In this document: positions 14,967-32,611 of the stretch, one piece after another
Layout: each line of letters begins with the position of its first letter
Position numbering within the stretch: the stretch's first letter is position 1
NCBI GenBank assembly: GCA_963666935.1
Contig: OY762936.1
Span: 453,354 to 517,353 of the forward strand
Length of the DNA: 64,000 bases
Direction of reading: 5' to 3'
From: Christensenellaceae bacterium
GTDB lineage: Bacteria; Bacillota; Clostridia; Christensenellales; CAG-138
Translations under genes and position numbers: made by a program
The notes under the pieces: generated by a model
Told to the model about the DNA's origin: nothing
Seen by the model: only the letters and a program-made list of their open reading frames with translations
Databases searched by the model: none

Positions 14967-15500
14967 TGGCGGAGAAGGAGGGATTCGATTTCGGCCATCG
15001 GCAGGCCGAGCTTGCACTTCGTACTGCGCTCGTCGCGCCTGGCACGAAATCCCGGCCTCTAAAAACGCTTCACCGGAGCGTTTTCTTAACGTGGCTTCGA
15101 ATCCCACTCAACAACAGGCACAAAAAAAAACCCGTCTTAAAAACGGGCTCTTCTTTGTGGCGGAGAAGGAGGGATTCGAACCCGCATACAGCCATATTTA
15201 TGCGTATTTTTGCGTTATTTACCGTATGGATATTTGGCTAAAAACAGGCTTTTTTTACTTCGCCCGTGTCATTCAATACAACTGATTGATAAGGGGTAAG
15301 GGGTAAAATAAGGGGTAGAAAATGCGCCCTTCAACTAAACTTTTCTGAAGTAGTTTATCTCCCTATTCTTAATTCTTCGTCTGGCCTAATAGCTTCTTGG
15401 TGCAATCTTCTTTGCTTCGTCTATGCTTCAGATTACTTTAGTTCATGCTTTGTTCAATTTAATACTTACTTCCATAGCAGCCCTTTCTATGATGGGAACT
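14967..15500. repeat. 535-bp direct repeat R1 (copy 2 at 21791-22325), containing two tRNA-Ser 3'-end fragments
   Basis: Nearly identical to 21791-22325, with a few substitutions near the ends. Contains tggcggagaaggagggattcga at 14967-14988 and tggcggagaaggagggattcgaaccc at 15158-15183. Also contains a minus-strand terminator (cccgtttttaagacggg plus T9) and a triple aagggg-ta repeat at 15281-15311. ORFs predicted inside are translation artefacts. Confidence 0.8.
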
Positions 15501-15605
15501 ATGACCTGCCAGTTTCTCCATTAAATGCTGACGACGATTTTGTCCAATCTAATTATGGCGTTATTATTTGCGCTAATCTTCATGATGAACGTAGGTTGCT
15601 TTTTA

Positions 15606-17105
15606 TTAAGAAAACACAAATCCGCGCTCTCGAAATAACTTTATACAAGCATCAACCACTTTACCGTCATATTTTACCCCTCGGTGCATAGCAATCTCAT
15701 TGATTGCTGCATCAATACCCAAAGCTGGCCGGTACGGGCGATGTGACATCATTGCTTCAACAACATCTGCGACAGCCAATATCCTACTTTCAGTAATTAT
15801 TTGGTCTGCTTTCAGTTTCTGAGGATAGCCGCTACCATCCAGTCTCTCATGATGCTGATAAATCATCTCGATAATCTGCTGAGGAAAGTCAATTTCTTTG
15901 ACTATTTCATAGCTATATTCAACGTGACCCTGCAATATTTGATATTCCAGGTTGGATATTTTGCCAGGCTTGTTGAGAATGTCAGAAGGGATGTGAACTT
16001 TACCAATATCATGAATAAGCGCGCCAATCGATATATTATATATGACATCATCCGGTAGTTTCATTTCTTTGGCAATCGCACAAGACAATAACGCTACTCT
16101 CTTTTGATGTCCTGCAGTATATGCATCCTTCAGCTCTCCAATTTTTGATATTGTATTGATTGTTTGCTGCAACCTAAGAAGAAGTTTTTCATTTTTCCTC
16201 GCAAGTTCCTCTGACAGCACATGCAGGTTTTGACTTAACTGTGCAAGATTTTCCGCTGCAAGTTTGCGTTCCGAGATATCAATGCAAAAGGCAAGAATGC
16301 AGTTGTCATCAATTTTTGTACCAAAAAGGTCTATCCAATAATCTTTACTATCTTTTTTTCTAACTAAATATTCTGCAGATAAAATTCCTTTGTCTATAAG
16401 TTCATGAAAATCTGCAAGCCCTTTTTCAATTTGATCAGTTGCAAGGAAATCAGCCACAGATAGGCCTAATACCTCTTTCTTTGTACGCCCCATCATCCGG
16501 CATCCCATTTCATTTACATCAATATATCGGCCTAGAGCGTTAGTCACAAAAACTCCGATTGGGGCCTTTTTGATGTAAGATTTGAAGATATCTTCACTTC
16601 TTCTTAACTTGATTTCAAGCTTTTTCCGTTCGCTAATCTCTTGTTTCAGTTCGCTTGTGCGGTGTTCCACCAACAATTCAAGCTGATCTTTTCGATTGCT
16701 GACAAGTATGTTTCTCTCTTTGATTTTTGCCATTGCAATTAATTGTGTTATTAATACCATGTCATCTATTGGTTTGAAAAGAAATGCCTCTGCTCCTGCT
16801 TCAAAAGCTTTTAGCCGGAGTTGCTGGTCGTCTTCTAAGTCAGTAATAAATAACATTGGAGTAAACTGTAGGCTTTGCTCTTTCTTTAAAATCTGACTTA
16901 TTTTCAAACCATCAGCTTTACTCATAGATATATCAAGCAAAATAACATCAGGGTCATGGTCTTTTGCATATTTTATGCATTGTAATATTTTTGAGGTAAT
17001 GTCAATTTTTGCTCCAGGAAGCGCTTTGGAAATAGTTTCCGCCAAACTTTTTGAATTAGTTATACTATCGCCTAGAATTATAATTTTTAGGTTTCTTTCC
17101 TCCAT
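15606..17105 (-). CDS. response regulator with REC, PAS and HD-GYP (c-di-GMP phosphodiesterase) domains
   Basis: REC motif DVILLDISMSKADGLKI is present. The HD-GYP signature HDIGK ... HHERLDGSGYP is present. RBS ggaggaaagaaat precedes the ATG at 17105. Confidence 0.7.
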   Translation of the reverse strand: MEERNLKIIILGDSITNSKSLAETISKALPGAKIDITSKILQCIKYAKDHDPDVILLDISMSKADGLKISQILKKEQSLQFTPMLFITDLEDDQQLRLKAFEAGAEAFLFKPIDDMVLITQLIAMAKIKERNILVSNRKDQLELLVEHRTSELKQEISERKKLEIKLRRSEDIFKSYIKKAPIGVFVTNALGRYIDVNEMGCRMMGRTKKEVLGLSVADFLATDQIEKGLADFHELIDKGILSAEYLVRKKDSKDYWIDLFGTKIDDNCILAFCIDISERKLAAENLAQLSQNLHVLSEELARKNEKLLLRLQQTINTISKIGELKDAYTAGHQKRVALLSCAIAKEMKLPDDVIYNISIGALIHDIGKVHIPSDILNKPGKISNLEYQILQGHVEYSYEIVKEIDFPQQIIEMIYQHHERLDGSGYPQKLKADQIITESRILAVADVVEAMMSHRPYRPALGIDAAINEIAMHRGVKYDGKVVDACIKLFRERGFVFS

Positions 17106-17195
17106 ATTTCTTTCCTCCAATAATATTTTCCATACCAAGGTGTTGCAAATATAACTTATCACGTTAATCCCACCATAAACATTTGAAAAATCACC

Positions 17196-17408
17196 TCAGC
17201 CACAAAACATACGAGCAACATCGAAAGAACAGGCTTCTGGCTGCGCTTCCATCGCATCTGCCATGGTCTTAAGTTCTTCTAAGTTAATCGTTTCACGCTT
17301 CAGCTTTTTACCGAAGGCCTGCGGCGACTGACCTAACCGTCTAGCCAACTCGGAGACACTGATATTCATCTGTTCACATAGCTGTCGTATCATGTCCGAG
17401 GTTTTCAT
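17196..17408 (-). CDS. XRE-family helix-turn-helix transcriptional regulator
   Basis: MIRQLCEQMNISVSELARRLGQSPQAFGKK is a Cro/C1-type HTH. RBS ggaggaactatt precedes the ATG at 17408. It sits directly upstream of, and is co-oriented with, the HD-GYP gene. Confidence 0.6.
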   Translation of the reverse strand: MKTSDMIRQLCEQMNISVSELARRLGQSPQAFGKKLKRETINLEELKTMADAMEAQPEACSFDVARMFCG

Positions 17409-17592
17409 AATAGTTCCTCCATGTATCAATAAAAACATTATAAATCATTTGGCTAAACAATAATAGCGTGGGCGGCCTTCGCGGGGTGGTTTTTCCACCC
17501 CTCCGCAAAGCGATATATATTGGGCTTTTCCCGATGGGCGTTATTTTCCTCGATCTCAATAAATCCATGCGAAACCAGTTCATTTACCACTT

Positions 17593-18676
17593 TTGCGAAC
17601 CCACCACGTTCTCAAGCAAATTGGCGTGGAAGGGTCCGAAGAAGGCTTAACCACAATCGCCAATACCATATCAGACGCGCTTATAATGGGGGATAAGTCT
17701 GCCATCAATCTCTCTACCCCGAACTACATGGCGCAGGGCATAAACGAACAAGAGGCTGCCAGAAAAGCGTATACCGACGCGGTCAACGGTCTGGCTCTTG
17801 ACACTCTCGGCAGTATGGTATCGGACAGCTTTGCGGGTTCTTTTGGTTCGGCACAGGGCAGGACAAACAACACTGCGCAGGACACAACACAGCCAGTTCA
17901 ACAGGATACGCGCCCTGTACAGCCCATTCACCAAGTTCAGCCAGAAGTGGTACAGCCCGTACAGCCCGTTCCACAGACGATACAGCCAATGGAAATCGCG
18001 CAACCGAATATGGCAGCACAATTCATTGAAACCGCGATTGAAACGGATGGAGCCGAAAATACCCCGGCAATGCAAGAAACCATATGGCAATATCCTGGTA
18101 ATGTTGATCGCGGACTGGTAGATTATGTGAAACAGTCTGCCTCTTCCGAATCCAACTCACTAAAACCCTATGAACTCAATACGGTAAGTGATCGGGCCGC
18201 ATCTGATATCAGAAACAAGTTGAACACATACTGAAACGACACGGCCGAAACGGATTGGCAGATCAAAGTATGTCTGACGTTAATAATATCGGTCGGATTC
18301 AGTATGCGCTTGATAATTACGATGCCGTAGAAGACGGCGGCCGAGTCACCGGATATTCAGAAAGAATCCCCGGGAAAGATCAAAACAGAACTGCCAGAAG
18401 CATCAAGTATTCAAGAAAATTGATGGCACTATGTATGTTGTTGAGGCTGTGCCGGATACCACAAAAAAGACAGTCTATGTAGTTTCTGCATACATAAATA
18501 AAAGAGGATCGTCTTCGCTCCCCAGCTCAAATACGGGGGTGATTACCGAAAACGACGAACTGTTTTTTAATCTCAACCTTAGCTGTGTGGATACTTCTGT
18601 GGCACGTACAGGGCGAAAAGGATATATTTGCACTCGCGAAGCGATTCTCCTGTCGGTAGACAAGGAAACCTTTTAA
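17593..18676 (+). pseudogene. frameshifted remnant ORFs, possibly the C-terminal part of a large polyvalent/conjugative-element protein
   Basis: Three overlapping ORFs in different frames (17593-18234, 18255-18482, 18431-18676). There is no proper ATG or RBS. A Q/P-rich linker is present. Confidence 0.25.
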
Positions 18677-18706
18677 TCCACGACCCCGTCCCCACGGTTA
18701 GCTTGT

Positions 18707-21079
18707 TCAGGTTAGTGAAGTGTCAGCCTGTTCCCGCAACAAATCGGCAAACTGTTCCGGCACAATAGGTCTGCTAAAGTGGAACCCCTGCATCTCGTCA
18801 CAGGACTGATCCTTTAGGTAGTTCATTTGTTCTATTGTTTCGACACCTTCGGCCACAACTGTTAAACCTAAGGTTTCACCCATGGCAATGATAGCATGGG
18901 TAATCGCCTTGTCTTCAGCGTTTTCCGGGACATTACGGATAAATGAACGGTCAATCTTTAGCGTATCAATGGGGAAATGCTTGAGCTGGGCAAGAGATGA
19001 GTATCCTGTACCAAAATCATCAATGGCCAGTCGCACTCCTATACTTTTAATTCTAACTAACACATCCATCATTTTCGTAGGGTTAGTCATTATCATGCTT
19101 TCGGTAATTTCCAATTCCAATAGATTTGGTGCCATACCGGAATCGTTTAGAGCGGCTTTTATATCATCTATCAGATTGTTATCTGCAAGTTGTCGTAATG
19201 ACAAATTTACCGCCATACAGACAGCTGGAAGCCCCTGCTTTTGCCATGCAACGTTTTGAGCGCATGCTGTCTTCAATACCCACTTACCAATTGACACTAT
19301 CATTCCTGTTTCTTCAGCCACTGGGATGAATTGCGTGGGAGTCACTGAACCAAGGTGTGGATTTTGCCAGCGAAGGAGTGCTTCCACGCCGGTTATGATG
19401 CCTGTTTTGAAATTCACTTTTGCTTGATAATGTAAAGAAAGCTCATTTCGTTCAAGCGCAAGCCGTAGATTTGTCTCAATAGCCAAACGTCCTGCTGATT
19501 GCAACTGAATATCTTCGGAGTAAAATTGAAAGTTGTTTTTGCCTTCTTCTTTGGCATAATACATAGCCATATCCGCATGTTTCATCAGTAGTTGTTCGTC
19601 TTCGCCATCCTGAGGGTATATGCTTATGCCAATGCTGGCAGTTACTCGGCATTCGTCACCCAGCAGAACTATTGGTTTATAAGTGCTGGCAAGAATATTA
19701 TTAGCTACAAGTTCTAAATCACTCAACTTGTTAAAGTCCTCAATCAAAATAATAAATTCATCTCCACCCTGACGGCTGACAACATCCTCTGCGCGTAGTG
19801 TTTGCTTATATCGCATGGCAATCTCTTGCAGCAGTTGATCTCCTGCCTCGTGACCCTTAGTGTCGTTGATTATCTTGAAACGGTCAAGGTCAATGAAGAA
19901 AACTGCTAATTTCCGTTTGTGACGTTTCGCAGTCTGGATCGAATGGTTAAGAATTTGGGAAAGCATCAATCGGTTGGGCAACCCCGTCAGGCTATCATGT
20001 GTGGCGAGATATTGAATCTTTCCCTCGGCGATTTTATATTCGGTAACATCTTTGGATGCGAGGACAAATCCTATCCGGGTATTATAATTATCGCTGCATT
20101 CGGAAATTGATAGAATTATTGGAATATTCACACCTGCGCTAGAAACCATGAACGTTTCCACATTCCGTATAGGACATGAGTTCAGCAATTCGGAAATGCT
20201 TGTATTGGTTGATTCGCCATCCGAGAGGAAGAGTCTTCCCAGCGGTTCTCCACCCAATTCCTTTTGGGTGTATCCCAGCAGCCTTTGCGTTTCCGGATTA
20301 ATACTTAATATGATTCCTTTTTGATCTGTAAGAATTACAGAATCGATGATTGTCTGAAATAAATTCTCTGCAATTAAAGATGGTGACAGTGTCATTAATT
20401 TATATTTTATAATAGCATATAAAATTCCCAGTTGCCAGATCATCATTCCTGCTGCAATCATATCCGGGATTTCGGCTTTGATGATTATATTTGCACACAC
20501 ATTATACCCCATGGTAAACAAAAAGGAAGTTGCGCCCGAAAAAAATATTATTTTAGTCTGTTTTCGTTCCCTTGTTGAGGTAGCTCTTCTTAGCACAGAA
20601 TAACATAAGTACATGTTTATTGTCCCTAAGATTCCTATGAAAATCATTAAAATCCAATACCATGCTGACGCTGCATTAGCAACTAATCTCCATCCGTATT
20701 GATTATAAATCACATCACTAAAGTATAAATTTTGTTTTATTGCCTGAAATATAAAAATAATTGCGGGCAAATAAAGCACAATGTAAATCCACCATTTTTT
20801 TAAAATGTTATCCTTTTTCGTATATACAAGAAGAAAGTGAAGAGCAAGGCTCGAAAATGTGCAAAATCCAATAGACGCTATCGTATTCCAAATGATACAA
20901 CTGGCTTTATCAGGCATGATTATTGAAACAGCGGTAGCAAACGACCATATAAAAAGACTTAGATTAAGCACAAAATACGTCCTGTTTAATGCTGCTTTTC
21001 TGTCCTTGAAGAGCATAACAACGCCCATAGTAAGATAAATAATACTAAATAAAAACAATAACTGTGAAAAAAAGTTCAT
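18707..21079 (-). CDS. membrane sensor diguanylate cyclase/phosphodiesterase (multi-TM N-domain, PAS, GGDEF, EAL)
   Basis: About 8 N-terminal TM helices. GGDEF motif RQGGDEFIIL is present. EAL motifs EALLRW and DDFGTGYSSL are present. RBS ggag sits 8 nt upstream of the ATG. Confidence 0.75.
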   Translation of the reverse strand: MNFFSQLLFLFSIIYLTMGVVMLFKDRKAALNRTYFVLNLSLFIWSFATAVSIIMPDKASCIIWNTIASIGFCTFSSLALHFLLVYTKKDNILKKWWIYIVLYLPAIIFIFQAIKQNLYFSDVIYNQYGWRLVANAASAWYWILMIFIGILGTINMYLCYSVLRRATSTRERKQTKIIFFSGATSFLFTMGYNVCANIIIKAEIPDMIAAGMMIWQLGILYAIIKYKLMTLSPSLIAENLFQTIIDSVILTDQKGIILSINPETQRLLGYTQKELGGEPLGRLFLSDGESTNTSISELLNSCPIRNVETFMVSSAGVNIPIILSISECSDNYNTRIGFVLASKDVTEYKIAEGKIQYLATHDSLTGLPNRLMLSQILNHSIQTAKRHKRKLAVFFIDLDRFKIINDTKGHEAGDQLLQEIAMRYKQTLRAEDVVSRQGGDEFIILIEDFNKLSDLELVANNILASTYKPIVLLGDECRVTASIGISIYPQDGEDEQLLMKHADMAMYYAKEEGKNNFQFYSEDIQLQSAGRLAIETNLRLALERNELSLHYQAKVNFKTGIITGVEALLRWQNPHLGSVTPTQFIPVAEETGMIVSIGKWVLKTACAQNVAWQKQGLPAVCMAVNLSLRQLADNNLIDDIKAALNDSGMAPNLLELEITESMIMTNPTKMMDVLVRIKSIGVRLAIDDFGTGYSSLAQLKHFPIDTLKIDRSFIRNVPENAEDKAITHAIIAMGETLGLTVVAEGVETIEQMNYLKDQSCDEMQGFHFSRPIVPEQFADLLREQADTSLT

Positions 21080-21203
21080 GGTTTACTCCACTTCTTAATT
21101 AATGCCATATTTCGCTTTGTTAATAAGATATAGAACATTTCCGTTCATGGGTGGATCCGTTAATTTTTACATTGTCTGCTTACCTATTATAATACCACTT
21201 TTG

Positions 21204-21401
21204 CTAATTAAATTCCATAAGTTGTGCTGCAGTGTGGAAAGCGGCGGCAAATGACCAGATGATAAGGCTCAAATTGAGAGTAAAGAAAAGTCTGTTTTGC
21301 ATCGACCGCTTATCCAGAAGAATAACCTTGAATCCCAATAAAACATACAAAACAGAAAGAATCGTCAGTATAAGCGAGAATATATTCATATTGCCTTGCA
21401 T
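21204..21401 (-). pseudogene. 5' fragment paralogous to the N-terminus of the GGDEF-EAL sensor gene
   Basis: The 65-aa ORF aligns with the first ~55 aa of ORF 18707-21079 (FTLNLSLIIWSFAAA vs FVLNLSLFIWSFATA). It is truncated near repeat R2. Confidence 0.4.
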
Positions 21402-21790
21402 GATATACGCATAGCAAGAGCTCGTGTAATCATGCGCTCCTTTCTGTGATTTTTGTTATAGTTAAAATAGTCACTATGGACTGTTAATAGCTTGGCTATT
21501 TGCTATTTTCTGCTTAAACTGGGTTATAATGGCATGCGTCTAATGACTTATTAATTTATTTCATTTCGATAAGGCACATGATATCAAAATTATTCCATAT
21601 TAATATTATACTAGTAATATAAATTAATCAATGTTATTTGTGGCTTTGCATGTCTTCGTGCCTGTGTTAGATATGCCCGGCGCAAACAGCCAGAAAGTCT
21701 AGTATTACAGGCTTTTTGCCCGCAGACGCAACAAATCCCGCCTCTTAACGAAGCGGGATTTATTGTATCAACGATTAGTGATGATATGCT

Positions 21791-22325
21791 TGGCGGAGAA
21801 GGAGGGATTCGATTTCGGCCATCGGCAGGCCGAGCTTGCACTTCGTACTGCGCTCGTCGCGCCTGGCACGAAATCCCGGCCTCTAAAAACGCTTCACCGG
21901 AGCGTTTTCTTAACGTGGCTTCGAATCCCACTCAACAACAGGCACAAAAAAAAACCCGTCTTAAAAACGGGCTCTTCTTTGTGGCGGAGAAGGAGGGATT
22001 CGAACCCGCATACAGCCATATTTATGCGTATTTTTGCGTTATTTACCGTATGGATATTTGGCTAAAAACAGGCTTTTTTCACTTCGTCCGTGTCATTCAG
22101 TATAACTGATTGATAAGGGGTAAGGGGTAAAATAAGGGGTAGAAAATATGCCCCCCAACTAAACTTTTCTGAAGCAGTTTATCTCCCTATTTTTAATTCT
22201 TCGTCTGGCCTAATAACTTCTTGGTGCACTCTTCTTTGCTTCGTCTATGCTTCAGATTACTTTAGTTCATCCTTTGTTCAATTTAATATTTACTTTCAAA
22301 GCAGCTCACTGGTAATGGGAACTAA
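21791..22325. repeat. 535-bp direct repeat R2 (copy of 14967-15500), with tRNA-Ser 3' fragments at 21791-21812 and 21982-22007
   Basis: Nearly identical to R1. Copy offset is about 6824 bp. Confidence 0.8.
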
Positions 22326-22674
22326 AAAAATACTCCGGCTACCGATTAAGACTATGCTTGCACTAAAAGTTACCGAATAAATAATGCCGTCTATAAAAGA
22401 ATGCATCCCAATGCCTACTAACGCGGTTATGCCAAAAGCCAGATCGGGTTGTTTCGTTTTATATTTTATAAATTTATTACTAAAGAACATGAACATAAAA
22501 CCTGCTAAGGCAGCCAGACCCGCGTTGGGATTTTTTTATGGCTTGGGGAAAAGCCATAACTAGAGGAGCGGAAATTAAAACGCCAGCCGCGAAACATATA
22601 AAATGCTCCTTAGCTCTTTCTGCCCAAACTCTATTTCTATAAACAAACAAAATTCCAAGGCTATTTACTATCAT
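22296..22674 (-). pseudogene. ZIP-family (ZupT-like) metal transporter, frameshifted
   Basis: Two adjacent ORFs in different frames. The HSFIDGI motif resembles the ZIP TM4 HSxxEG signature. A T-homopolymer lies at the junction (~22530). Confidence 0.3.
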
Positions 22675-22747
22675 TGCACTTAATGCAAAAGTCGCAATCC
22701 ATGTGAATGTACTAAATGTTGGCCTTTTCTTATCTCCTTTTAACTGG

Positions 22748-23944
22748 TCAATTTTTTAAAGGTGAATTAATTGTTAGGCCAAGTTTTTTAAGCGCTATTT
22801 CAGGAGTCTCTTTATCTGTGACAATTATTTCAATATTTGAGTCAGAAAAAACATAGGCCGGTCCTTTACTGCTAAAGTCTTTTTTGAGTAGGACTAGATC
22901 AACCATATTCCTTACCAGAAATTCTGCTGCTAATATTCCTTTGCTTTTTTCAATTTTACAAAAGGGATTGTCAATAATCTCTGTCTTATTAGAGGCCTTG
23001 TCTCCAGCCTTAAATGTTACAAGCATAAAATATAATGCTTCCCCAAAATGAGCACTGATCGAAGCTTGATCATCTGTCAACGGTATGGCATAAATGATTT
23101 CTTCCTTTTGTAGTGGCTCATAATGGATAAGTATCCGGTCTATGTTCTTGATTTCAACTTTGATATGGTCCTCTATTTTATCTACAAGGTAATGAGCTTT
23201 GTCTAAGTCGTGCGTTTTGATAATTAAACTTGCTTCAATAAACTTAAACCGTCCTGAATTACGGCCTGTTAGGGATTTCAGCTCGATTACTTGAGGTGTA
23301 TCTACAATGATCTTTTCCACCTTGCTAAGTGTTTTATAATCTAAGGAAGCGTCCAAAAGGACTCGGATCCCATCCAGTAATATTTCCAGTCCAGTCTTTG
23401 CAATAAATCCAACAACAATGAAAGCCGCTACCTTATCAAATTGATATCCCAGTATGTTGGCAATTATTGCTGCCAAAACAGCTGTATTGCTTAACACGTC
23501 CGTACGGATATGAGCAGCGTCAGCTAATAACATGGGCGAATTTATTTTTTTCCCAATTTTTTTCTCATATCTGGAAAACCAGAAGGTGATCACCATTGCA
23601 ACGACTACACTAAGTATTGCAAGCCAAGAATTTTGCAGTGTTCCCGAACTTTTTGTCATAACCTCCCGCACAATCTCATAACCCGTGTAGAGGATAATTA
23701 AGGAAATTAAAACAGACATTAAATTTTCAACCTTATAGAGGCCATATGGAAATCTCTTGGTTTTGCGTTTTGCAATCTTCAATCCTACAAAAACAGTTGA
23801 AGATGCAACAAAATCCGCAAAGCTGTGAAATGCTTCAGCTTTTAATGCAATACTGCCAGACGCAGATGCAGCCAAATATTTTACGCCAAATAAAAGAAAA
23901 TTAATAGCCATCGATAGCAGTGCCGTTCTTTCGCTTATCTCCAT
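22748..23944 (-). CDS. cation diffusion facilitator (CDF) transporter fused to a C-terminal NifX/NafY-like (dinitrogenase FeMo-cofactor-binding fold) domain
   Basis: CDF HxxxD motifs are present in two TM helices (HSFADFVAS and AAHIRTDVLSN). C-terminal ISAHFGEALYFMLVTF matches the PF02579-type FG..A..F core. Confidence 0.6.
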   Translation of the reverse strand: MEISERTALLSMAINFLLFGVKYLAASASGSIALKAEAFHSFADFVASSTVFVGLKIAKRKTKRFPYGLYKVENLMSVLISLIILYTGYEIVREVMTKSSGTLQNSWLAILSVVVAMVITFWFSRYEKKIGKKINSPMLLADAAHIRTDVLSNTAVLAAIIANILGYQFDKVAAFIVVGFIAKTGLEILLDGIRVLLDASLDYKTLSKVEKIIVDTPQVIELKSLTGRNSGRFKFIEASLIIKTHDLDKAHYLVDKIEDHIKVEIKNIDRILIHYEPLQKEEIIYAIPLTDDQASISAHFGEALYFMLVTFKAGDKASNKTEIIDNPFCKIEKSKGILAAEFLVRNMVDLVLLKKDFSSKGPAYVFSDSNIEIIVTDKETPEIALKKLGLTINSPLKN

Positions 23945-24247
23945 AAAATCACACCCTTTCAAAAACATTGATTATCTATAAATCATTTTAACCTATAGGT
24001 ATCATATCCCTTATAATTTATCGCAACCACCCCGCTGTCTTTTTTCAGATCATCTAAAATTACATTGATATTGTTACAGCTTCTCGACTTTAGAAATCCT
24101 TCAATTTCGAACTGGTTCATAGGATGACGCTTTATAATGCTCACGATTCTGTAATTTGTCGATCTTTTGCAAGGCCGGCAAAAGGTGTCCCAAAATCCGG
24201 CATTTCGTTTACCTCCTTAATTCTTACTCGCTGTAGACCTTAACCTA

Positions 24248-24922
24248 TTATTTCTTTTCTTTATTAAAGCATAAGAACCAATCAAGGCAATATTTATTTT
24301 CATCTTGGTTTTCCATTCTCTCCTTGGCAACTCCACATGATCCAGGTGTTGGAATAATCGTATCATCTCCCGGCCTCCAGTTGGCTGGTGTGGCAACTGA
24401 ATCTTTATCGGCCTTTTGTAAAGCAAGTATTATTCTCTTGATTTCATCAAAATTACGCCCACAGGATGCCGGGTAGTATAGGATAGTTCGAATAACCGCC
24501 TTTGGGTCGATGACAAATACTGCACGCACTGCCTGAGTGGTAGACTGAGATTGGATCATTCCATATTTATTGGCTACTTCCATTTTGATATCTTCAATTA
24601 AAGGGAATTTCACTTCAACTTTCTCCAGGCCATTCCATTTTAACTCCTGTATCTTTCTGAGCCATGCTATGTGCGCATAAAGTGAGTCTACTGAAAGTCC
24701 GATAAGCTCTGTATTCAATGCTTTGAAGTCTTCTGCCATTGACGCAAAAGTCATAAATTCAGTGGTACAAACTGGTGTAAAATCGGCTGGGTGAGAAAAC
24801 AAGATCACCCATTTACCTTTGAAGTCATCAGGAAAATTGATTGCGCCTTGCGTTGTTACTGCTTTAAACGCTGGCGCCAAGTCCCCAATTAATGGCATTC
24901 TATTTACATTCATTTCTTCCAT
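24248..24922 (-). CDS. 1-Cys peroxiredoxin (Prx6-like, AhpC/TSA family)
   Basis: FTPVCTTE peroxidatic-Cys motif is present. RBS aaggagg sits 8 nt upstream of the ATG at 24922. Confidence 0.75.
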   Translation of the reverse strand: MEEMNVNRMPLIGDLAPAFKAVTTQGAINFPDDFKGKWVILFSHPADFTPVCTTEFMTFASMAEDFKALNTELIGLSVDSLYAHIAWLRKIQELKWNGLEKVEVKFPLIEDIKMEVANKYGMIQSQSTTQAVRAVFVIDPKAVIRTILYYPASCGRNFDEIKRIILALQKADKDSVATPANWRPGDDTIIPTPGSCGVAKERMENQDENKYCLDWFLCFNKEKK

Positions 24923-25042
24923 GATTATTACCTCCTTTAATTTTATAAAAAAATATGGTATTTGCCCAAAAGAGATACATACACCGTTTTCCATTGTTTT
25001 GTCATCTACTAGCATTGCTATTTTTATTAGGTATCCTCCTCC

Positions 25043-25387
25043 TTATCGTATTGTTCTTCTTCCACAACCATGCATCCGCTCAATTTCGTTGTAAAGTTTA
25101 TAATCTCCGCCTTCAATCTTAAGAACGTTCCCATTAACTAAGGACTCGGCGATCTTACTTCGTGCATCCCTGTAAATATTTTGAACAGTAGCACGTGCAA
25201 CCTGCATCTTTTCAGCACATTCTTCCTGAGTCAAACCTTCAAGATCTATAAGGCGGATAGCTTCATACTCTTCAACTGTCATCATAATAATTTCGTTTTC
25301 TATATCTGATCCATTAAGCGGTCCATATAGGTTGCTCTTTGGCAGGCAACATACTTTTCTCCATTTTCTTGGTCTTGACATTACCAA
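25043..25387 (-). CDS. DUF134 (UPF0251) family putative DNA-binding regulator
   Basis: N-terminal [10 protein letters not shown] and a central HTH-like segment [28 protein letters not shown] are present. RBS gaggtg precedes the ATG. Confidence 0.55.
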
Positions 25388-25429
25388 TTCACCTCATTCA
25401 AGCAACATAAGTAACAGGGGTATCCCCTG

Positions 25430-25726
25430 TCACTTATTAACCTCTGGCATATTTTCTAATTGTCTACTAACAATATCTAGCCTTTTTTGAAGTAACTCTT
25501 TTTGCTCTGTAAGAATCTCTTTGTCAGTTAACACAACAGTTTCTCCAGCAAAAGATCTTCCAAATCCTCGTAGGCATCCATAGCCCGCTCCCCGACCTAA
25601 TCCTCTGCCACTTACTCGACCAAATCCAGCGCCATATCCGCCTACATTAGCTCCATTGCAAACTCCTGAGACTCTTCCGCTCATTGCTCCACGACCCATT
25701 GGGCCTGTTCCATCTCTTCCTGGCAT
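25430..25726 (-). CDS. Gly/Arg-rich small protein (DUF5320-like) with C-terminal coiled coil
   Basis: N-terminal MPGRDGTGPMGRG followed by GRG/GYG repeats containing Cys. C-terminal helical KEILTEQKELLQKRLDIVSRQLENM. Confidence 0.45.
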   Translation of the reverse strand: MPGRDGTGPMGRGAMSGRVSGVCNGANVGGYGAGFGRVSGRGLGRGAGYGCLRGFGRSFAGETVVLTDKEILTEQKELLQKRLDIVSRQLENMPEVNK

Positions 25727-25749
25727 AGTATCTTTTCCTTTCGATTTGA

Positions 25750-25986
25750 TTATGTTCTAATCATTGTCGTACCGCATTTTGGGCACTTCATACTTGCACA
25801 AGGTTCCGCACGTAGATGTTTTACTTTTTCACCACAGTTTGGGCATTCACAATAACCTTCTGGACCTGCACTTGCAGGACCTCCCATTTTTCCTCTACCA
25901 GCTGCTGTTCCAGTTTGTCTGCCTATACCGGCACCTCTGCCTGCTCCAGCTGGGCCTGTTCCGTCTCTTCTTAACATATCTACCAC
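25750..25986 (-). CDS. Gly/Arg-rich small protein (DUF5320-like N-terminus) with C-terminal CxxC...CxxC zinc ribbon
   Basis: N-terminal MLRRDGTGPAGAGRGAGIGR. C-terminal CECPNCGEKVKH...CPKCGTTM. RBS aggaggtg precedes the ATG. Confidence 0.45.
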   Translation of the reverse strand: MVDMLRRDGTGPAGAGRGAGIGRQTGTAAGRGKMGGPASAGPEGYCECPNCGEKVKHLRAEPCASMKCPKCGTTMIRT

Positions 25987-26023
25987 CTCCTAATGGTTTT
26001 TGGCATATGCTATTTATAATTTC

Positions 26024-26051
26024 ATTATAGACTGTTTTTGGCATATGTCAA
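26024..26051 (-). promoter_or_regulatory. near-consensus sigma-A promoter (TTGACA-16-TATAAT) for the DUF5320/DUF134/Prx/CDF operon, bracketed by direct-repeat putative operator catatgccaaaaac x2
   Basis: On the minus strand: ggttaTTGACAtatgccaaaaacagtcTATAATgaaattataaatagcatatgccaaaaacc, then RBS aggaggtg and the ATG at 25986. Confidence 0.5.
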
Positions 26052-26244
26052 TAACCGTTTTGGAATAAGCAAAATGAAACAGAGCCGGCACTCAAGGAAT
26101 TATTTCCTCTAGAGACGGCCAGTTTTGTACAGGTGATACTGTATTAAGGACTATTCGTCATTAACTTCTGCGAGCTGTGGCCGCTGATCGATTGTCAGTA
26201 CCACGCCTTCACTCTCTAATGCATATCCGATCAATTGGAAATAG

Positions 26245-26290
26245 CGATTTAACTGCAACAAAGAGCAATTAAAATCTATAAGGAGTATTT
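26245..26290. repeat. 46-bp direct repeat (copy 1) cgatttaactgcaacaaagagcaattaaaatctataaggRgtattt with internal imperfect palindrome TTAACTGC-N8-GCAATTAA
   Basis: Second copy at 27826-27871. The two copies flank the patatin gene. Confidence 0.7.
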
Positions 26291-26479
26291 ACCTTTATTA
26301 AACAAAAAAAAAGACTACCAAACATGGCAATCAAAATATTTTAATGCAAAAATTCAATAGTTTAGCTTAATAATATACCACCAGAAACCAATTCATAATA
26401 ACAATACAACTTTCTACAATAATATTATGAATCTATTTTCGAATTTGCTTTGATAAGCCTCTGCTGATGAACTATCTCT

Positions 26480-27325
26480 TCAATTACTTTTCTTAAATAT
26501 TTTATGGGCTAGCTTTTCCCAGTAGTTCGGAGTCTTTCCTTCGAGAAGTTTTTTAATATCATCAATCATTCCAAGTGCTGCGGCTCTGCCTATGCCAATG
26601 CTTTCTTCCACTTTCGCAAATTCAGTTGGGCCGATTTTACTTGTATCTACCACAATTGTAATATCTGCATCGGTTTTCATTCCACGCATGGCCTCCCATT
26701 GCTGAAGCTCAAAAGAATATATCATAATATCAACGATGTTTTTAGGTGAAGAACGGAGCTCTCCACGGTAACCAACATCTACTGCTATCACAATATCTGC
26801 GCCCATACTGCGCGCTGCATCTACCGGTACCCTTACAAGCACTCCACCGTCTACATAAGTCTTGCCGTCAAATATTACGGGTTCGAACACTCCAGGAAGG
26901 GAGATACTAGCACGAACCGCATCTGTCGTTTTGCCTGAATCAAATATCTTAACCTTACCATCTTCCAAGCAGGCGGATATTGTGGCAAACGGTATTTTCA
27001 TTTCATCTATATTGCTATCGCCAGTCAATGCAGTGATAATGGTATCTATATTATTACCTTTTATAAGACCAATGCGCGGCAGAGTAACATCAATAAGTTT
27101 TCCGTATCCATTGCTGAAGGTATCGGACACAATGGTATGTATTTCTTCAGATGAAATGCCGCTTGCGAACATGCAGCCTATTACAGCGCCCATACTGCAT
27201 CCGGCAATAAAGTCTATAGGCACACCATGTTCTTCCAATACCTCCAACACACCTATATGAGTCAGTCCTCTGGCAGCACCTGCTCCAAGAGCCAATCCGA
27301 TTTTAACTTTCTTATTCATTTTCAT
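26480..27325 (-). CDS. patatin-like phospholipase
   Basis: GxGxxG oxyanion motif (LALGAGAARG), GxSxG nucleophile motif (GCSMGAVIG) and a downstream DGG Asp motif are present. Confidence 0.75.
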   Translation of the reverse strand: MKMNKKVKIGLALGAGAARGLTHIGVLEVLEEHGVPIDFIAGCSMGAVIGCMFASGISSEEIHTIVSDTFSNGYGKLIDVTLPRIGLIKGNNIDTIITALTGDSNIDEMKIPFATISACLEDGKVKIFDSGKTTDAVRASISLPGVFEPVIFDGKTYVDGGVLVRVPVDAARSMGADIVIAVDVGYRGELRSSPKNIVDIMIYSFELQQWEAMRGMKTDADITIVVDTSKIGPTEFAKVEESIGIGRAAALGMIDDIKKLLEGKTPNYWEKLAHKIFKKSN

Positions 27326-27825
27326 TCGCTCCTGTTGCTTTATTTATTACAATTCATTCAAAAAATTATTGCAAGATAAAGTGCTAATAAGCATTGAATT
27401 ATTATCCTTATCGCTTGAATTAAATTTTCGAGTTCTTCCGGTGTGCAAGTAAAAACGTTCAAGAAAACATATTAACCAAAAATATTTCTCCTGACTGCTC
27501 ATGCTTGGGAATATATCGAAACCCGCATTGTATCCGGTCTATTAAGATTCGTATAATATGTATAACCTGTTACAGTGTGTTCCTTTAATATAATATTTAA
27601 AGGTATATGGTTGGAATTGTCAAATTTGGCTCTTATCTACAGGCAAGATAGTTGCAATGCCTGGAGAGAATACGAGCGGCCGGTAGGGTTCTGCTACGGA
27701 TAGCCCGGGGATATTTAATAACCCTAGTATCAATATTTCTATCCTTAGGAGAACCTTAATGCGATAACACATGATAAAGAAAAAACCGCAGACAGCGATG
27801 CTAATCACACTATTGCCTGCGGTTA

Positions 27826-27871
27826 ACGATTTAACTGCAACAAAGAGCAATTAAAATCTATAAGGGGTATT
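27826..27871. repeat. 46-bp direct repeat (copy 2) of 26245-26290
   Basis: Identical except for one substitution. Confidence 0.7.
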
Positions 27872-27919
27872 TTAACAAAGAAAAAAAGCCAGTTTTCCCA
27901 GATAAACAGGCTTTTCTTG

Positions 27920-27982
27920 TGGTGGAGAAGGAGGGATTATCATTATGAGCCGCAAAGAGCGCGGCTGAACGGTTTATCATTT
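27920..27982. repeat. element C/E2: tRNA-Ser 3'-end fragment (tggtggagaaggagggatt) fused to conserved motif attatgagccgcaaagagcgcggctgaacggtttatcattt
   Basis: Copy of the arrangement at 12267-12329. The discriminator base differs (A vs G). Confidence 0.6.
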
Positions 27983-28294
27983 GCCAACCCCACGATCTGC
28001 ATTATTGCTGCCGAAAACGTCGCACGGTAAACAAGAACCGGGCGGCGTTTTTTTATGATAGTAACCCAACGCATAATAAGCATGATGTTATTGTGGTTGG
28101 CTGCATACGCCGGCACAATAGATACCGCGAATGTGGCCCTGCGCTCTACACAATCATGTTTGGATTTTCCTAATTACAAATGCGTGCAACAATAGTCGAC
28201 TACTGTTTACGGACATCTGTCAACCTGACAATAAAAGACTTTAATTTTGCTTAATGCCAGACTGCCCGAAAAGTGCTCCGGCCGTATTAACACA

Positions 28295-28305
28295 CCCCCC
28301 CCCCC
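28295..28305. repeat. homopolymeric C11 tract followed by an extended -10 (TGgTATAAAT) about 230 bp upstream of the FG-GAP/C11 gene pair
   Basis: cacaCCCCCCCCCCCgcaaag ... gagtaTGgTATAAATaa. Confidence 0.5.
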
Positions 28306-28575
28306 GCAAAGTACTGGGCAGGAGAGTATGGTATAAATAATAAGAATATTTACAATTGCCGCTGCAATCAATCGGCTGGCACCATCGAAAGTATAATGCT
28401 AAGTTCATGCAAATATTAATTCAATTAAATGAAATGTATGCATATTGAAAGTACAGGAATCCGCTATTGCTGAACATATACCAACTTTTTCGGGAAGCCA
28501 GTTGTATATGGATGTAACTGGAATGTAAAAGCCTGAATATTATAAAGGGTGTGAGTCTATTGAGGAGGGGAAATT

Positions 28576-29631
28576 ATGAATGCATCTTTTGCTCCGGCTG
28601 TGTTTTATGGCACCGATCGCGGTCCCTACGGAATCGTTGTTGCTGATTTCACCGGCACGGGCGTTATAGATTTGGCCACGGCATGTAACCAAAATGATAG
28701 TGTGGCGGTATTACTTGGGAATGGCAACGGTACATTTAAAACGATGGTGACGTACGCTGTTGGAAGCAATCCCACCGCTGTCACTGCGGCTGATTTTAAT
28801 GGGGACGGCAATATGGATTTGGCTGTAACAGATTCAAACGGCGGTGATATTGCGGTTCTTTTCGGTAACGGTGATGGTACTTTTGGATCTGCTCATGCCT
28901 TGTCGGCGACCTCGAACCCGCTCAGTATCGTATCGGCCGACTTTAGGAATAACGGCAATATGGATCTGGCCATAGTCGATGCGGGCGCCTCCGTAGTAGG
29001 CGTCCTGCTTGGCAACGGCAATGGTACTTTTGCGGCAATGACACTTTATCCAATAAGTGCTGTGGGCGTTGGAATCATAGCTGCTGATTTTAACGGCAAC
29101 GGCAAAATGGACTTGGCGGTAACCTGTGATGATGGGCAGGTTAGAATCTTGCTTGGAAACGGTAACGGCACGTTTATGGATGCAGTAGCTTACCCCGCGG
29201 GCAATGACGTTGTATATGCCACTGCCGCCGACTTTGACAACGATGGTAAAATGGATCTTGCCGTAACAAATATGAGTACCAATAAAGTTGCGATCCTGCT
29301 TGGGAATGGCGATGGTACTTTTCGAAGCCCAACATTTTTCGATGCCGGATTTTATCCATGCGGCATCGTGTCCGCAGATTTTAACGGAGAAGGTAAAATG
29401 GATCTGGCAGTAACAAATATAGGCGATAACCGTGTCGCAATTTTGCTTGGAAACGGCGACGGTACGTTCCAGAGCTGTCAATTTTATAATGCAAACGACT
29501 ATCCGGCCAATATTGTAACGGAAGACTTTAACAGGGACGGTAAAAAAGACTTGGCCGTGATTGGTTTCTATTCCAATAATGTCGGAGTATTCATCAACAC
29601 AACGCCGGTTCGCGGCCTGCCTTCTTTATAG
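28576..29631 (+). CDS. FG-GAP/VCBS repeat 7-bladed beta-propeller protein, no signal peptide (predicted cytoplasmic)
   Basis: Seven repeats of the pattern ADFNGDGxMDLAVT...LLGNGNGTF. RBS ggagg precedes the ATG. The N-terminus is not hydrophobic. Confidence 0.7.
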   Translation: MNASFAPAVFYGTDRGPYGIVVADFTGTGVIDLATACNQNDSVAVLLGNGNGTFKTMVTYAVGSNPTAVTAADFNGDGNMDLAVTDSNGGDIAVLFGNGDGTFGSAHALSATSNPLSIVSADFRNNGNMDLAIVDAGASVVGVLLGNGNGTFAAMTLYPISAVGVGIIAADFNGNGKMDLAVTCDDGQVRILLGNGNGTFMDAVAYPAGNDVVYATAADFDNDGKMDLAVTNMSTNKVAILLGNGDGTFRSPTFFDAGFYPCGIVSADFNGEGKMDLAVTNIGDNRVAILLGNGDGTFQSCQFYNANDYPANIVTEDFNRDGKKDLAVIGFYSNNVGVFINTTPVRGLPSL

Positions 29632-29724
29632 AGGAGGGCATTACTTAAAGTTATTTTAATCGTTCAGCCGGGTTTTATAGAATAACTTACTATCACTAAG
29701 GAGCGATTAAAAGGAGCGATTAAA

Positions 29725-30918
29725 TTGAGTATGCGGCAGAGAGCCGACTGGACGATTTTAATTTATGCTGACGGCAACAACGATCTCGAACCTGAAATGC
29801 AGCGGGTTTTGCATGATGCAGAAACGGTTGGATCAAATTTAAATGTGAACGTGGCGATACAAATTGGCAGAGCGGAATTTGAGCTTGTGAAGCTTATAAG
29901 GCCTGGCGCTAATTTGAAAGATGATCATAGTTGGAGCGGCGTCAGGCGCTATTTTGTTACCCAAGGCGATTCCGAATTGGTTGAAAGCCTGAATAAAGCC
30001 AATATGGCAGATCCCAGGCAGCTTTATCAGTTTGTTAAATGGGGTATTCTGTCTTATCCGGCGGAAAGATACATGCTGGTATTAAGCGGCCATAGTTATC
30101 ACTGCGTTGGCATGATAACCGATTACAGCGAGAATGCCCCCTGTATAATGGGACTTCCGGAAATGGTTAACGCCATCAATATGGCCGCAAACGAAACGGA
30201 CAAGAAAATCGATGTTCTCGTGATAGACGCTTGTTACTCCAATTCGTTAGAGCTCCTTTATGAATTTGGTATGGATGAAAATCATGCGGTTCAAAATGTC
30301 ATTACCTATATTGTTAACGGGCCGATAGAGGGGTTGCCCTATAATCACGTCATTAACTTGGTGCAGGCAAATTGTATTGAAGATACTGAGGTGCTAATCA
30401 AAAATCTCATACAAAATCTATCGCATAATTTAGTTTCCTTTAGAATAGACCATAAGGCGCTTCTGCAAATCAAGCAGTTATTTAGTGATAAATCTGCCGA
30501 GTGCATTTCAAAAAACGCGGGTGATGCCATGCTGGATCATCAAACACTGGTTATGGAACAAAGGCGTATCATTCAGTTCATATCCAGCCGGGCACTGCCT
30601 ATTTATATTTATTATTATAAACAAAGTGATAACAACCAATTAATTATGGTAAAAGGCGGTATCGGCAGTCGTTTCAAAATAGAGGAAAATTACTACCGGT
30701 TGGGATTTGCGCAGAATAATTGTTGGACCCGCTTGCTAAACGATAAACCGGTCGATTTCGATAAGGTAAATGCCATGCAAAAAGAAAGTATGCAGCCGCT
30801 GGAAATGAGTCCTCAGGAAGTATACGAGAGTATTGCTATCATTAAACCAGGTCTGGAGCAAGCACAAATCAGTGATATCTTAAATAGGCTTTATCAGCAT
30901 AAGAATTGGCTTTTATGA
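29725..30918 (+). CDS. clostripain-like cysteine peptidase (MEROPS C11, clan CD), no signal peptide
   Basis: WTILIYADGNNDLE N-terminal block is present. His (LSGHSYHC) and Cys (LVIDACYSNS) catalytic-dyad blocks are in C11 order. TTG start at 29725 or ATG at 29731. A tandem 13-mer aaggagcgattaa x2 precedes the start. Confidence 0.7.
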   Translation: MSMRQRADWTILIYADGNNDLEPEMQRVLHDAETVGSNLNVNVAIQIGRAEFELVKLIRPGANLKDDHSWSGVRRYFVTQGDSELVESLNKANMADPRQLYQFVKWGILSYPAERYMLVLSGHSYHCVGMITDYSENAPCIMGLPEMVNAINMAANETDKKIDVLVIDACYSNSLELLYEFGMDENHAVQNVITYIVNGPIEGLPYNHVINLVQANCIEDTEVLIKNLIQNLSHNLVSFRIDHKALLQIKQLFSDKSAECISKNAGDAMLDHQTLVMEQRRIIQFISSRALPIYIYYYKQSDNNQLIMVKGGIGSRFKIEENYYRLGFAQNNCWTRLLNDKPVDFDKVNAMQKESMQPLEMSPQEVYESIAIIKPGLEQAQISDILNRLYQHKNWLL

Positions 30919-31055
30919 TCAGCAGACGGTAACGGAGCTCATGAATAATCCCGGCCGCTAAAACGCTCTACCGTAGCGTTTTTTAACGCGGCTTTGAATC
31001 CCGCCATATAAATAAGTTGCCAAAACAAAGGGCACCCTATGGGTGCCCTTTGTTT

Positions 31056-31148
31056 TGGCGGAGAAGGAGGGATTCGAACCCTCGCGCCAGTTACCCCAGC
31101 CTACTCCCTTAGCAGGGGAGCCCCTTACAGCCACTTGGGTACTTCTCC
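31056..31148 (-). tRNA. tRNA-Ser (anticodon GCU)
   Basis: Reverse complement ggagaagtacccaagtggctgtaaggggctcccctGCTaagggag...gcgagggttcgaatccctccttctccgcca. It has a long variable arm and a 7-bp acceptor stem with G73 and encoded CCA. It is followed by hairpin terminator gggcaccctatgggtgccc. Confidence 0.85.
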
Positions 31149-31390: not shown

Positions 31391-32611
31391 ATGGGCATCA
31401 TTAAAGCGCTCGCGGGGGCAATCGGCGGTGGGTTTGCGGATCAGTGGCTTGAAGTTCTGGAACCAAACGACATGTCGGATACGACGGTCTTTACCCAGGG
31501 CGTCACCGTACGCAAGGACGATCGGCGCAGCTCCAATACAAAAGGAACGGCGGATACTGTTTCCAACGGCTCCATCATCCACGTCTACGACAACCAGTTC
31601 ATGATGCTGGTAGACGGTGGCAAAGTGGTGGATTACACTGCGGAGCCCGGTTATTACAAAGTGGATGATTCTTCGCTGCCGTCTTTGTTTAACGGCCAGT
31701 TCGGGGATACGCTCAAAGAGGCGTTCGCAAGAATTAAATTCGGCGGCGTGCCCAGCAGCGCCCAGAAGGCGTTTTACATCAACCTTCAGGAGATTAAGGG
31801 CATCAAGTTCGGCACCCGCAATCCAATCAACTACTTCGATTGTTTTTACAATTCCGAGCTGTTTTTGAGGGCACACGGAACCTATTCCCTCAAAATCACG
31901 GATCCTATTAAATTCTATCAGGAAGCGGTGCCCAGGAATGCGGAGCGGGTGGACATCGTAGATATTAATGAGCAGTACATGGCGGAGTTTTTAGAGGCGC
32001 TGCAGTCTGCCATCAACCAGATGAGCGCGGAAGGAACCCGCATTTCCTTTGTCACCGGCAAGGCCCGGGAACTGGGCAAATATATGTCCCAAACGCTGGA
32101 TGAAGATTGGAAGCAGATGCGCGGCATGGAAGTCCAGTCCGTTGGCATCGCCAGCATCTCCTACGACGAGGAGTCCCAGAAGCTCATCAATATGCGCAAC
32201 CAGGGCGCAATGCTGGGGGATCCCAACGTGCGCGAAGGCTATGTGCAGGGTTCTATCGCCCGGGGCATGGAAGCGGCGGGCAGCAATAGCAGTGGCGCGG
32301 CGGCGGCGTTTATGGGCGTGGGCATCGGCATGCAGGCCACCGGCGGTGCGGCCACGGCCTTTTCTCAGAGCAATCAGGCTCAAATGCAGCAGCAGGCGCA
32401 GCAGCCTGCGCAGCCGCCAATGCAGGCGGCCGTGGTGCAGCAAGTTGGCGGGTGGACTTGCGCCTGTGGAAGCGTAAATTCCGCCAATGCAAAGTTCTGT
32501 CCCCAGTGCGGCGGGAAAAAGCCAGAGGGCGGTGGCTTCTGCTCTCAGTGTGGCGCCAAAACTTCACCCGACGCCAAATTCTGCCCCGAATGCGGAAACA
32601 AACTGAACTGA
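31391..32611 (+). CDS. SPFH/band-7-like (Band_7_1, virion-core-protein-like) domain protein with Q-rich linker and three C-terminal CxxC zinc ribbons
   Basis: N-terminal MGIIKALAGAIGGGFADQW is typical of the family. C-terminal CACGSVNSANAKFCPQCG...CSQCGAKTSPDAKFCPECG. Confidence 0.55.
   Translation: MGIIKALAGAIGGGFADQWLEVLEPNDMSDTTVFTQGVTVRKDDRRSSNTKGTADTVSNGSIIHVYDNQFMMLVDGGKVVDYTAEPGYYKVDDSSLPSLFNGQFGDTLKEAFARIKFGGVPSSAQKAFYINLQEIKGIKFGTRNPINYFDCFYNSELFLRAHGTYSLKITDPIKFYQEAVPRNAERVDIVDINEQYMAEFLEALQSAINQMSAEGTRISFVTGKARELGKYMSQTLDEDWKQMRGMEVQSVGIASISYDEESQKLINMRNQGAMLGDPNVREGYVQGSIARGMEAAGSNSSGAAAAFMGVGIGMQATGGAATAFSQSNQAQMQQQAQQPAQPPMQAAVVQQVGGWTCACGSVNSANAKFCPQCGGKKPEGGGFCSQCGAKTSPDAKFCPECGNKLN

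Follow-up and report, generated by a model that had tools for sequence, protein, structure and literature searches.

Elements that are bounded by att sites and lack an integrase of their own (cis-mobilizable elements, CIMEs) are known to form by tandem accretion and decay, a documented route in the ICESt1/ICESt3 family (PMC5704250). They are bounded by direct repeats, carry neither integrase nor transfer genes, and sit within stacks of decayed elements at the 3' end of a tRNA gene, with repeated att fragments between the layers (PMC5704250). A comparable mosaic is described for the ssrA islands of Dehalococcoides, where cargo segments accumulate as site-specific integration recurs at the 3' end of one small RNA gene (PMC3146451). 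Other small modules are also framed by short sites. In dif modules (IMEX), one or a few genes lie between sites with inverted arms and a central spacer, with no recombinase inside; pdif sites are 28 bp long (11-6-11) and usually face in opposite orientations around the module. An integron cassette consists of one gene and, downstream of it on the coding strand, the attC site, an imperfect palindrome of 57-141 bp that has an extra-helical base and R''/L''/L'/R' boxes; intI, attI and an array of cassettes accompany it. Finally, REP/BIME and MITE-like repeats are short imperfect palindromes found in intergenic DNA right after terminators.

The stretch of DNA analysed here (the window, 64 kb) contains a gene for a patatin-like phospholipase between two copies of a 49-bp direct repeat. 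The locus shares with CIMEs its direct repeats at both ends, the absence of integration and transfer genes inside, and a place at a tRNA 3' end among stacked, decayed elements, several of them separated by repeated att fragments. It differs from them in that the surrounding layers use a tRNA-derived att sequence other than the 49-mer, which is likewise not the att site of any identifiable integrase or target gene, and no cognate integrase was identified; moreover, the patatin module comprises a single gene and is very small, at 1.5 kb. The Dehalococcoides islands (PMC3146451) resemble the tRNA-Ser hotspot around the module and not the 49-bp repeat itself. Despite its general likeness to a dif module, with one gene between short sites that have inverted arms and a central spacer, the repeat has an 8-bp spacer, imperfect arms, identity over the full 49 bp, and a palindrome that is not beyond chance. 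The likeness to an integron cassette includes the palindrome after the gene with its extra-helical base and a GTTAAAT motif (GTTRRRY-like) at the 3' arm of the 49-mer on the minus strand. Here, however, the palindrome is only 31 nt long, its 5' arm departs from RYYYAAC, intI, attI and a cassette array are all lacking, and the patatin gene has terminators of its own and a long leader. The only tyrosine recombinase of the window scores 46 bits against the integron integrase model, for which the cut-off is 265. The resemblance to REP/BIME and MITE-like repeats lies in the short imperfect palindrome placed right after terminators, but there are just two copies in the 64-kb window, adjacent to one another, and no family members in relatives or public collections.

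The two copies of the repeat are identical at 47 of 49 positions and begin 1582 nt apart. A perfect core of 38 nt (26246-26283 and 27828-27865) leaves the two mismatches near the edges only, and the identity ends abruptly on the left. The core gave 0 matches in 100 shuffles of the window, and a 49-nt repeat of this kind is far beyond chance. No further copy is present in the 64-kb window on either strand, even when up to 17 mismatches in 49 positions are allowed. The sequence-only reading had described 46-bp direct repeats 1581 bp apart; these are real and lie where it put them, but the repeat is in fact 49 nt long with a spacing of 1582 nt. That reading was right that only the patatin gene and its flanks are enclosed, since the sole ORF inside is 26480-27319 and the rest of the interval is non-coding. 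Its distances of about 260 and 500 bp upstream of the two genes also agree with those that we measured. From copy 1 it is 256 nt downstream to the first ORF of the DUF5320 operon and 191 nt to the operon's -35 element (a spacer of 190 nt). Copy 2 precedes the patatin ATG by 505 nt, and a strong terminator and 465 nt separate it from the gene. At both copies, the T-run of a minus-strand terminator is 6-13 nt away, and both should lie in gaps that are barely transcribed. The flanks of the repeats have no other homology, and nothing else is duplicated between or around the copies; an A-run beside each copy is marginally similar, with a 7-nt indel (p ~0.03). The coordinates of the features are collected in Table 1.

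Table 1. Positions of the features in and around the patatin module, numbered from the first letter of the window
Feature	Positions	Strand	Remarks
Repeat copy 1	26242..26290	.	49 nt; 12 nt past the patatin terminator on the minus (gene) strand
Repeat copy 2	27824..27872	.	49 nt; flanked on both sides by minus-strand terminators
Imperfect palindrome	26246..26276 (copy 1); same sequence at 27828-27858 (copy 2)	-	11-bp stem, 8-nt loop
Patatin-like phospholipase, RssA-like	26480..27319	-	279 aa; G-x-G-x-x-R, GCSMG and DGG motifs intact
Predicted intrinsic terminator of patatin	26303..26332	-	8-bp stem + T9; immediately inside copy 1
Non-coding stretch upstream of patatin	27320..27779	-	~460 nt
Predicted strong terminator	27780..27823	-	11-bp G+C-rich stem + T6; immediately inside copy 2
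Predicted sigma-70-type promoter of the DUF5320/DUF134 operon	26024..26051	-	perfect TTGACA-16-TATAAT
tRNA-Ser 3'-end fragment	21982..22007	-	26 nt; left boundary of integrase-less segment 22008-27919
Terminator hairpin of displaced tRNA-Ser 3' end	27881..27918	-	homologous to what lies downstream of the tRNA fragments at 15123-15176 and 21947-22000
Displaced tRNA-Ser 3'-end fragment TGGTGGAGAAGGAGGGATT	27920..27938	-	island junction, 47 nt from copy 2
Sequence 83% identical to 12287-12345 (end of large-serine-recombinase element)	27940..27998	.	
Intact tRNA-Ser(gct), integration target	31056..31148	-	synteny with L008, the closest available relative, begins exactly at its 3' end

The patatin protein retains the glycine-rich loop, the GCSMG nucleophile elbow and the aspartate of the DGG motif. 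Its best match among curated models is RssA, at 153 bits against an equivalog cut-off of 272. The match to the CBASS lipase model reaches 25.8 bits, where the cut-off is 200, and the best PADLOC phospholipase model gives 31 bits. PADLOC returned no match for the two downstream neighbours (an FG-GAP protein and a C11 peptidase) or for the tyrosine recombinase of the window, and Pfam scans of the genes around patatin found no defence-type domain. Patatin effectors of anti-phage systems (CBASS CapV and similar) pass a family cut-off and have a signal-generating partner, and neither is found here. With RssA as the far better match and no defence domains in the surrounding genes, the hint in the sequence-only reading at an anti-phage role is not supported.

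The DNA between the repeats is predicted to be one self-contained transcription unit, with a terminator placed just within each repeat; the terminator inside copy 2 would insulate the unit from upstream transcription. The non-coding stretch between this terminator and the patatin gene has no match in Rfam or Pfam and no homology to the flanks of the patatin relatives. Neither a recombinase nor a recognisable relic of one is present in the module, including its 460-nt leader, and Pfam is blank in the other reading frames as well.

The closest homologues of the patatin, at loci L002, L003 and L010, share 86, 77 and 72% amino acid identity with it. At all three, DNA alignment to the window is confined to the patatin coding sequence, and the neighbouring genes differ. 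L003 and L010 have a conserved pairing of patatin with a PAS-GGDEF-HD protein that the window lacks, and in L003 a large serine recombinase abuts another tRNA-Ser gene 4.6 kb away. A search for repeats around patatin in these relatives found promoter-like similarities in L002 and nothing else. Because the homology stops at the coding sequence and the neighbours differ, the patatin of the window looks like a relocated or acquired gene. The genomes with the two closest patatins are not among the best 120 relatives of two flanking genes; there is a weak hint in these comparisons that patatin and the flanking genes have separate histories.

The setting of the module is, on the sequence evidence, a proven multi-layer integration hotspot, or graveyard. 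L008, whose SPFH (Band 7) protein is 94% identical to the product of window gene 31391-32611, is collinear with the window from 31055, the 3' end of tRNA-Ser(gct), rightwards. To the left of the tRNA it has a different element, with a relaxase, MobC and a large serine recombinase that abuts the tRNA. In the window, six fragments of the tRNA-Ser 3' end occur (12267, 14967, 15158, 21790, 21982 and 27920), along with a duplicated junction block of 535 nt (14967-15501 and 21791-22324, 95.7% identical), a truncated large serine recombinase (11524-12276) that is 91.6% identical to its counterpart in L008, and a short tyrosine recombinase at 14123-14902. The segment 22008-27919, which comprises the DUF5320 operon and the patatin module, has tRNA fragments at both ends and no recombinase. 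Copy 2 of the repeat is at the extreme right end of this segment, 8 nt from the terminator of the displaced tRNA.

A frame of 45 codons (26288-26154) crosses copy 1, and in an alignment with L012 its stop coincides with that of a large serine recombinase, so that copy 1 might lie in a recombinase pseudogene. In that locus the recombinase is intact and lies upstream of the same operon; remnants are found at that place in L014, L015 and L005. Against a profile of the recombinase C termini of these relatives, the frame scores E=35, rank 24 of 1834 window ORFs, and the last ~10 nt alone look homologous. Pfam is blank for it, and a search of the full library gave spurious repetitive matches only.

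The operon downstream of copy 1 encodes, in order, a Zn-ribbon/DUF5320 protein, a DUF5320 protein, a DUF134 protein at 25043-25387, a peroxiredoxin and a CDF-NifX protein. Its promoter has two boxes of the TGACATATGCCA type, one at 26050-26039 that overlaps the -35 element and one at 26012-26001, 38 nt downstream and past the -10 element. With the DUF134 protein as query, 80 loci were recovered from metagenomes, and the double TGACATATGYCA box is kept in ~20 distinct ones, before DUF5320/DUF134 genes, often as the perfect palindrome TGACATATGTCA. The DUF134 regulators are an uncharacterised family, and we regard this well-conserved double box as the real operator candidate for them. The four loci most similar to the window (~85% nucleotide identity) are homologous to it from 24945 to 26061-26156, and the homology ends ~85 nt short of copy 1; the sequence further upstream differs in each of the four.

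The 49-mer is absent from all 91 related loci that we compared (617 kb), a set that takes in four loci with promoter regions ~85% identical to that of the operon and four patatin loci; it is thus absent at the patatin loci of relatives as well. Public collections were searched with the repeat arms as a pattern with a free spacer. This pattern had no match in metagenome contigs, and two patterns of this type had none in viral contigs. The collection of genome contigs gave one chance-level match, within a coding region of an unrelated AT-rich MAG, and the plasmid and phage collections gave nothing relevant. Rfam has no family for the repeat, either at gathering cut-offs or at E<=5. The 49-mer matches no known att site, is not derived from the tRNA and is unrelated to the tRNA-Ser fragments of the neighbouring layers.

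On the minus strand, the stem of the palindrome within the repeat has one bulged T and one G.T pair. The two half-sites agree only in part, with TTAACTGC matching the reverse complement of GCAATTAA at 6 of 8 positions. Folded as RNA, the minus-strand hairpin has a predicted energy of -9.6/-10.2 kcal/mol in the two copies (z -2.6/-3.3), and the plus strand of copy 1 has a z of -0.4; as single-stranded DNA the hairpin reaches merely -3.6 kcal/mol. Among shuffled 49-mers of the same composition, 73% contain an inverted repeat with 8-nt arms (<=2 mismatches) and 12% contain one with 10-nt arms. Because shuffled sequences equal it at these rates, the palindrome is not beyond chance and deserves little weight. 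An inverted repeat is thus present in both copies, as had been described, but it is imperfect and weaker than that description. We rejected a promoter within the 49-mer: inspection of both strands by eye revealed no acceptable -35/-10 pair, and the promoter scan lists none.

Several explanations of the repeat pair have to be weighed against one another. The one put first by the sequence-only reading, that one dimeric transcription factor uses the 49-mer as its operator and thereby controls both patatin and the DUF5320 operon, appears highly improbable to us. It can appeal to the inverted repeat with an 8-bp spacer and to the placement of both copies upstream of minus-strand genes; however, the dyad symmetry is no better than chance, and neither copy is within or next to the promoter it would control. 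Copy 1 is 191 nt from a perfect -35 element whose promoter has its own double box, shared by ~20 loci, and copy 2 is cut off from patatin by the strong terminator and 465 nt. The 49-mer is not conserved upstream of orthologous genes, with 0 of the 91 loci containing it, neither close relatives with ~85% identical promoter regions nor the patatin relatives. The copies are identical across the spacer and 20 nt of flank as well, which suggests a duplication and not selection on half-sites. The repeats probably have no regulatory role, and the shared regulator does not survive these comparisons. The asymmetry of the hairpin could instead suggest an RNA stem-loop on the minus strand, read when transcription passes the terminators and acting in processing, in stability or as a back-up pause. 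The better minus-strand folding, owed to a G.U pair, and the same post-terminator position in both copies are in keeping with this; against it, the strand asymmetry depends on that one base pair, the hairpin has no T-run of its own and would lie in stretches expected to be barely transcribed, no relative conserves it, and Rfam is blank even at the relaxed threshold. We consider such an RNA element quite improbable. It is also improbable that the copies descend from an older duplicated unit of terminator plus 49-mer, with gene conversion maintaining their similarity as the intervening DNA was exchanged, and with no insertion at the repeat. The marginally similar A-runs would fit this history, but the identity breaks off sharply at its left edge, the flanks have no other homology, and the copies are the only duplicated sequence in and around the interval.

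The main rival to an insertion scar is a dispersed element of the REP/BIME or MITE type, of which the 49-mer would be a member that inserts independently after intrinsic terminators; its copies would then flank patatin through coincidence or local spread. Both copies lie 6-13 nt past a minus-strand T-run, after one transcription unit has ended and before the next promoter, a placement that a small mobile repeat which seeks terminators would explain more naturally than a scar does. The imperfect hairpin with its bulged base, stabler on one strand, is of the expected kind, and two copies per 64 kb would be compatible with several tens in a genome of at least 2.4 Mb. On the other hand, the window has two copies only, which occupy neighbouring intergenic gaps and face the same way, an arrangement with a random chance of ~0.02-0.03 given ~60 gaps, and it has no diverged copies. 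None was found in the 617 kb of relatives or in the metagenome and viral collections, and the single match in the genome collection is at chance level. The subset of window ORFs that was scanned includes no RAYT (REP-associated transposase) and no IS200-type gene. On balance we hold this origin to be unlikely. The target-site duplication of a transposon has a fixed short length of 2-15 bp, and we rejected this origin because 49 bp is too long, the edges are fuzzy, there are no terminal inverted repeats longer than 3 nt and there is no transposase. We also rejected a DGR, as there is no reverse transcriptase, and a CRISPR locus, as there is no array.

The reading that fits best is the one that had been offered as an alternative, namely that the repeats delimit a small cassette: a lone gene unit insulated by terminators lies between the copies, and its arrival by insertion would account for them. 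We tentatively interpret the repeats as a recombination or insertion scar, similar to attL and attR, around a 1.53-kb patatin module that would be a CIME-like relic, and we put the probability of this a little below one half. The module would begin with the terminator and continue through ~460 nt of non-coding DNA to the patatin gene and the terminator of that gene. Its target would have been the right-hand end of the older, integrase-less segment 22008-27919, in the stack of elements at tRNA-Ser(gct). A circular intermediate of 1.58 kb that shared the ~49-bp sequence with this target could have recombined there, either through a site-specific recombinase supplied in trans or through homologous (Campbell-type) recombination. 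The module may have since lost a recombinase of its own, or it may never have had one. The arrival by insertion, the circular intermediate, and continuing loss or amplification via the repeats are steps that we infer.

An identical core with mismatches at its edges fits related attP and attB sequences, or a crossover driven by homology, and the abrupt left boundary together with the complete inserted unit fits an insertion. We also count in favour of the scar the position of copy 2 beside the displaced tRNA terminator at the end of the segment, as well as the restriction of homology to the coding sequence in the patatin relatives. Against it we count the lack of a recombinase or relic in the module, the fact that the 49-mer is not tRNA-derived and matches no known att site, and its length, as 49 bp is short for efficient RecA-dependent insertion. 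A more specific version, in which the 49-bp sites are of the lox/dif type, with imperfect arms of ~11 bp and an asymmetric 8-bp spacer, and a self-contained, recombinase-less single-gene cassette is excised and put back by a chromosomal tyrosine recombinase in trans, has in our estimation a small chance of being correct. Whatever their origin, 49-bp direct repeats 1.5 kb apart could allow the occasional loss or tandem amplification of patatin.

If sites of the lox/dif type were indeed at work, the module would be the equivalent in a Firmicute of integron cassettes or dif modules, with a patatin lipase as its cargo. The results of this analysis that can be put to further use are rather the conserved candidate operator associated with DUF134 and the tRNA-Ser hotspot with its layers; a patatin gene bounded by repeats is fairly ordinary in a mosaic island. 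Should the scar reading be true, it would represent small and typical island biology, a lipase gene dropped into a tRNA-Ser hotspot, which would open no new question and would bear on how accessory genes move in uncultured Desulfotomaculaceae-like Firmicutes.

The promoter of the minus-strand DUF5320/DUF134 operon contains a 12-bp palindrome, TGACATATG(C/T)CA, in duplicate: the first copy overlaps the -35 element and the second follows the -10. The copies are spaced 38 nt apart both in the window and in its closest relatives, and the same two-palindrome arrangement is found in about 20 distinct metagenomic loci (L005, L012-L015, L021, L023-L029, L037, L041, L063, L068, L069, L078, L089 and L091 of the related loci retrieved). 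The double palindrome is a strong candidate for the operator of the uncharacterised DUF134 helix-turn-helix protein, which probably uses it for autoregulation. In the literature searched, we found no published description of a DUF134-associated palindrome.

In several relatives, the DNA upstream of this operon also carries the end of a large serine recombinase gene, 70-190 nt from the promoter. Because an intact recombinase (L012) or remnants of one (L005, L014, L015) end there, a single recombinase family may use this DNA repeatedly as its attachment site. The window's own truncated large serine recombinase retains only the DUF4368 and Zn-ribbon part, which shares 91.6% identity with its intact counterpart beside tRNA-Ser in L008, the closest available relative. 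After this truncated gene comes an attP-like junction in which inverted arms, ATTATG(G/A)GCCG...CGGCTCATAAT, flank TGGCGGAGAA; the far-arm sequence occurs a second time at 27940-27998. The 3' end of tRNA-Ser(gct) is the exact break point of synteny between the window and L008, and the region forms a multi-layer integration hotspot with displaced tRNA fragments and a duplicated junction block.

Coordinates of features in the window and, where a locus number is given, in related loci
Feature	Position	Strand	Remark
Palindrome, two copies	26050-26039; 26012-26001	minus	DUF5320/DUF134 operon promoter
Truncated recombinase and adjoining junction	11524-12345
Recombinase upstream of DUF5320 operon	L012 1673-3256		intact
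Recombinase remnants upstream of DUF5320 operon	L014 449-700; L015 1146-1397; L005 1331-1528
Integration hotspot at tRNA-Ser(gct)	12267-31148		multi-layer
Displaced tRNA 3'-end fragments	12267; 14967; 15158; 21790; 21982; 27920		n = 6
Duplicated junction block	14967-15501; 21791-22324		535 nt; 95.7%
ZIP-like short ORFs, two	22296-22674	minus
Zn-ribbon/DUF5320-like first operon gene	25750-25974; L005 about 1720-1960
FG-GAP repeat gene	28576-29631

Downstream of the CDF-NifX gene in the window lie two short ORFs that resemble fragments of a disrupted metal transporter of the ZIP family; in the related loci L005 and L006, an intact Zip gene follows the CDF gene. The operon's first gene in these two loci contains an early in-frame TAG (ATG TCA AGA TAG) and may be a pseudogene. 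Separately, the 660 nt of non-coding DNA upstream of the FG-GAP repeat gene contain a run of 11 C (28296-28306). This run could be a tract for phase variation by slipped-strand mispairing, or else a homopolymer error of long-read sequencing.

The nearest homologue in the window of the gene that accompanies patatin in relatives (15606-17162) lacks the GGDEF part and sits 9 kb from the patatin gene, in a different island layer. Since patatin is paired in those relatives with a PAS-GGDEF-HD gene of c-di-GMP turnover (L003 10001-12906; L010 7942-10830), there are hints that the clade of the window's patatin is functionally tied to c-di-GMP signalling.
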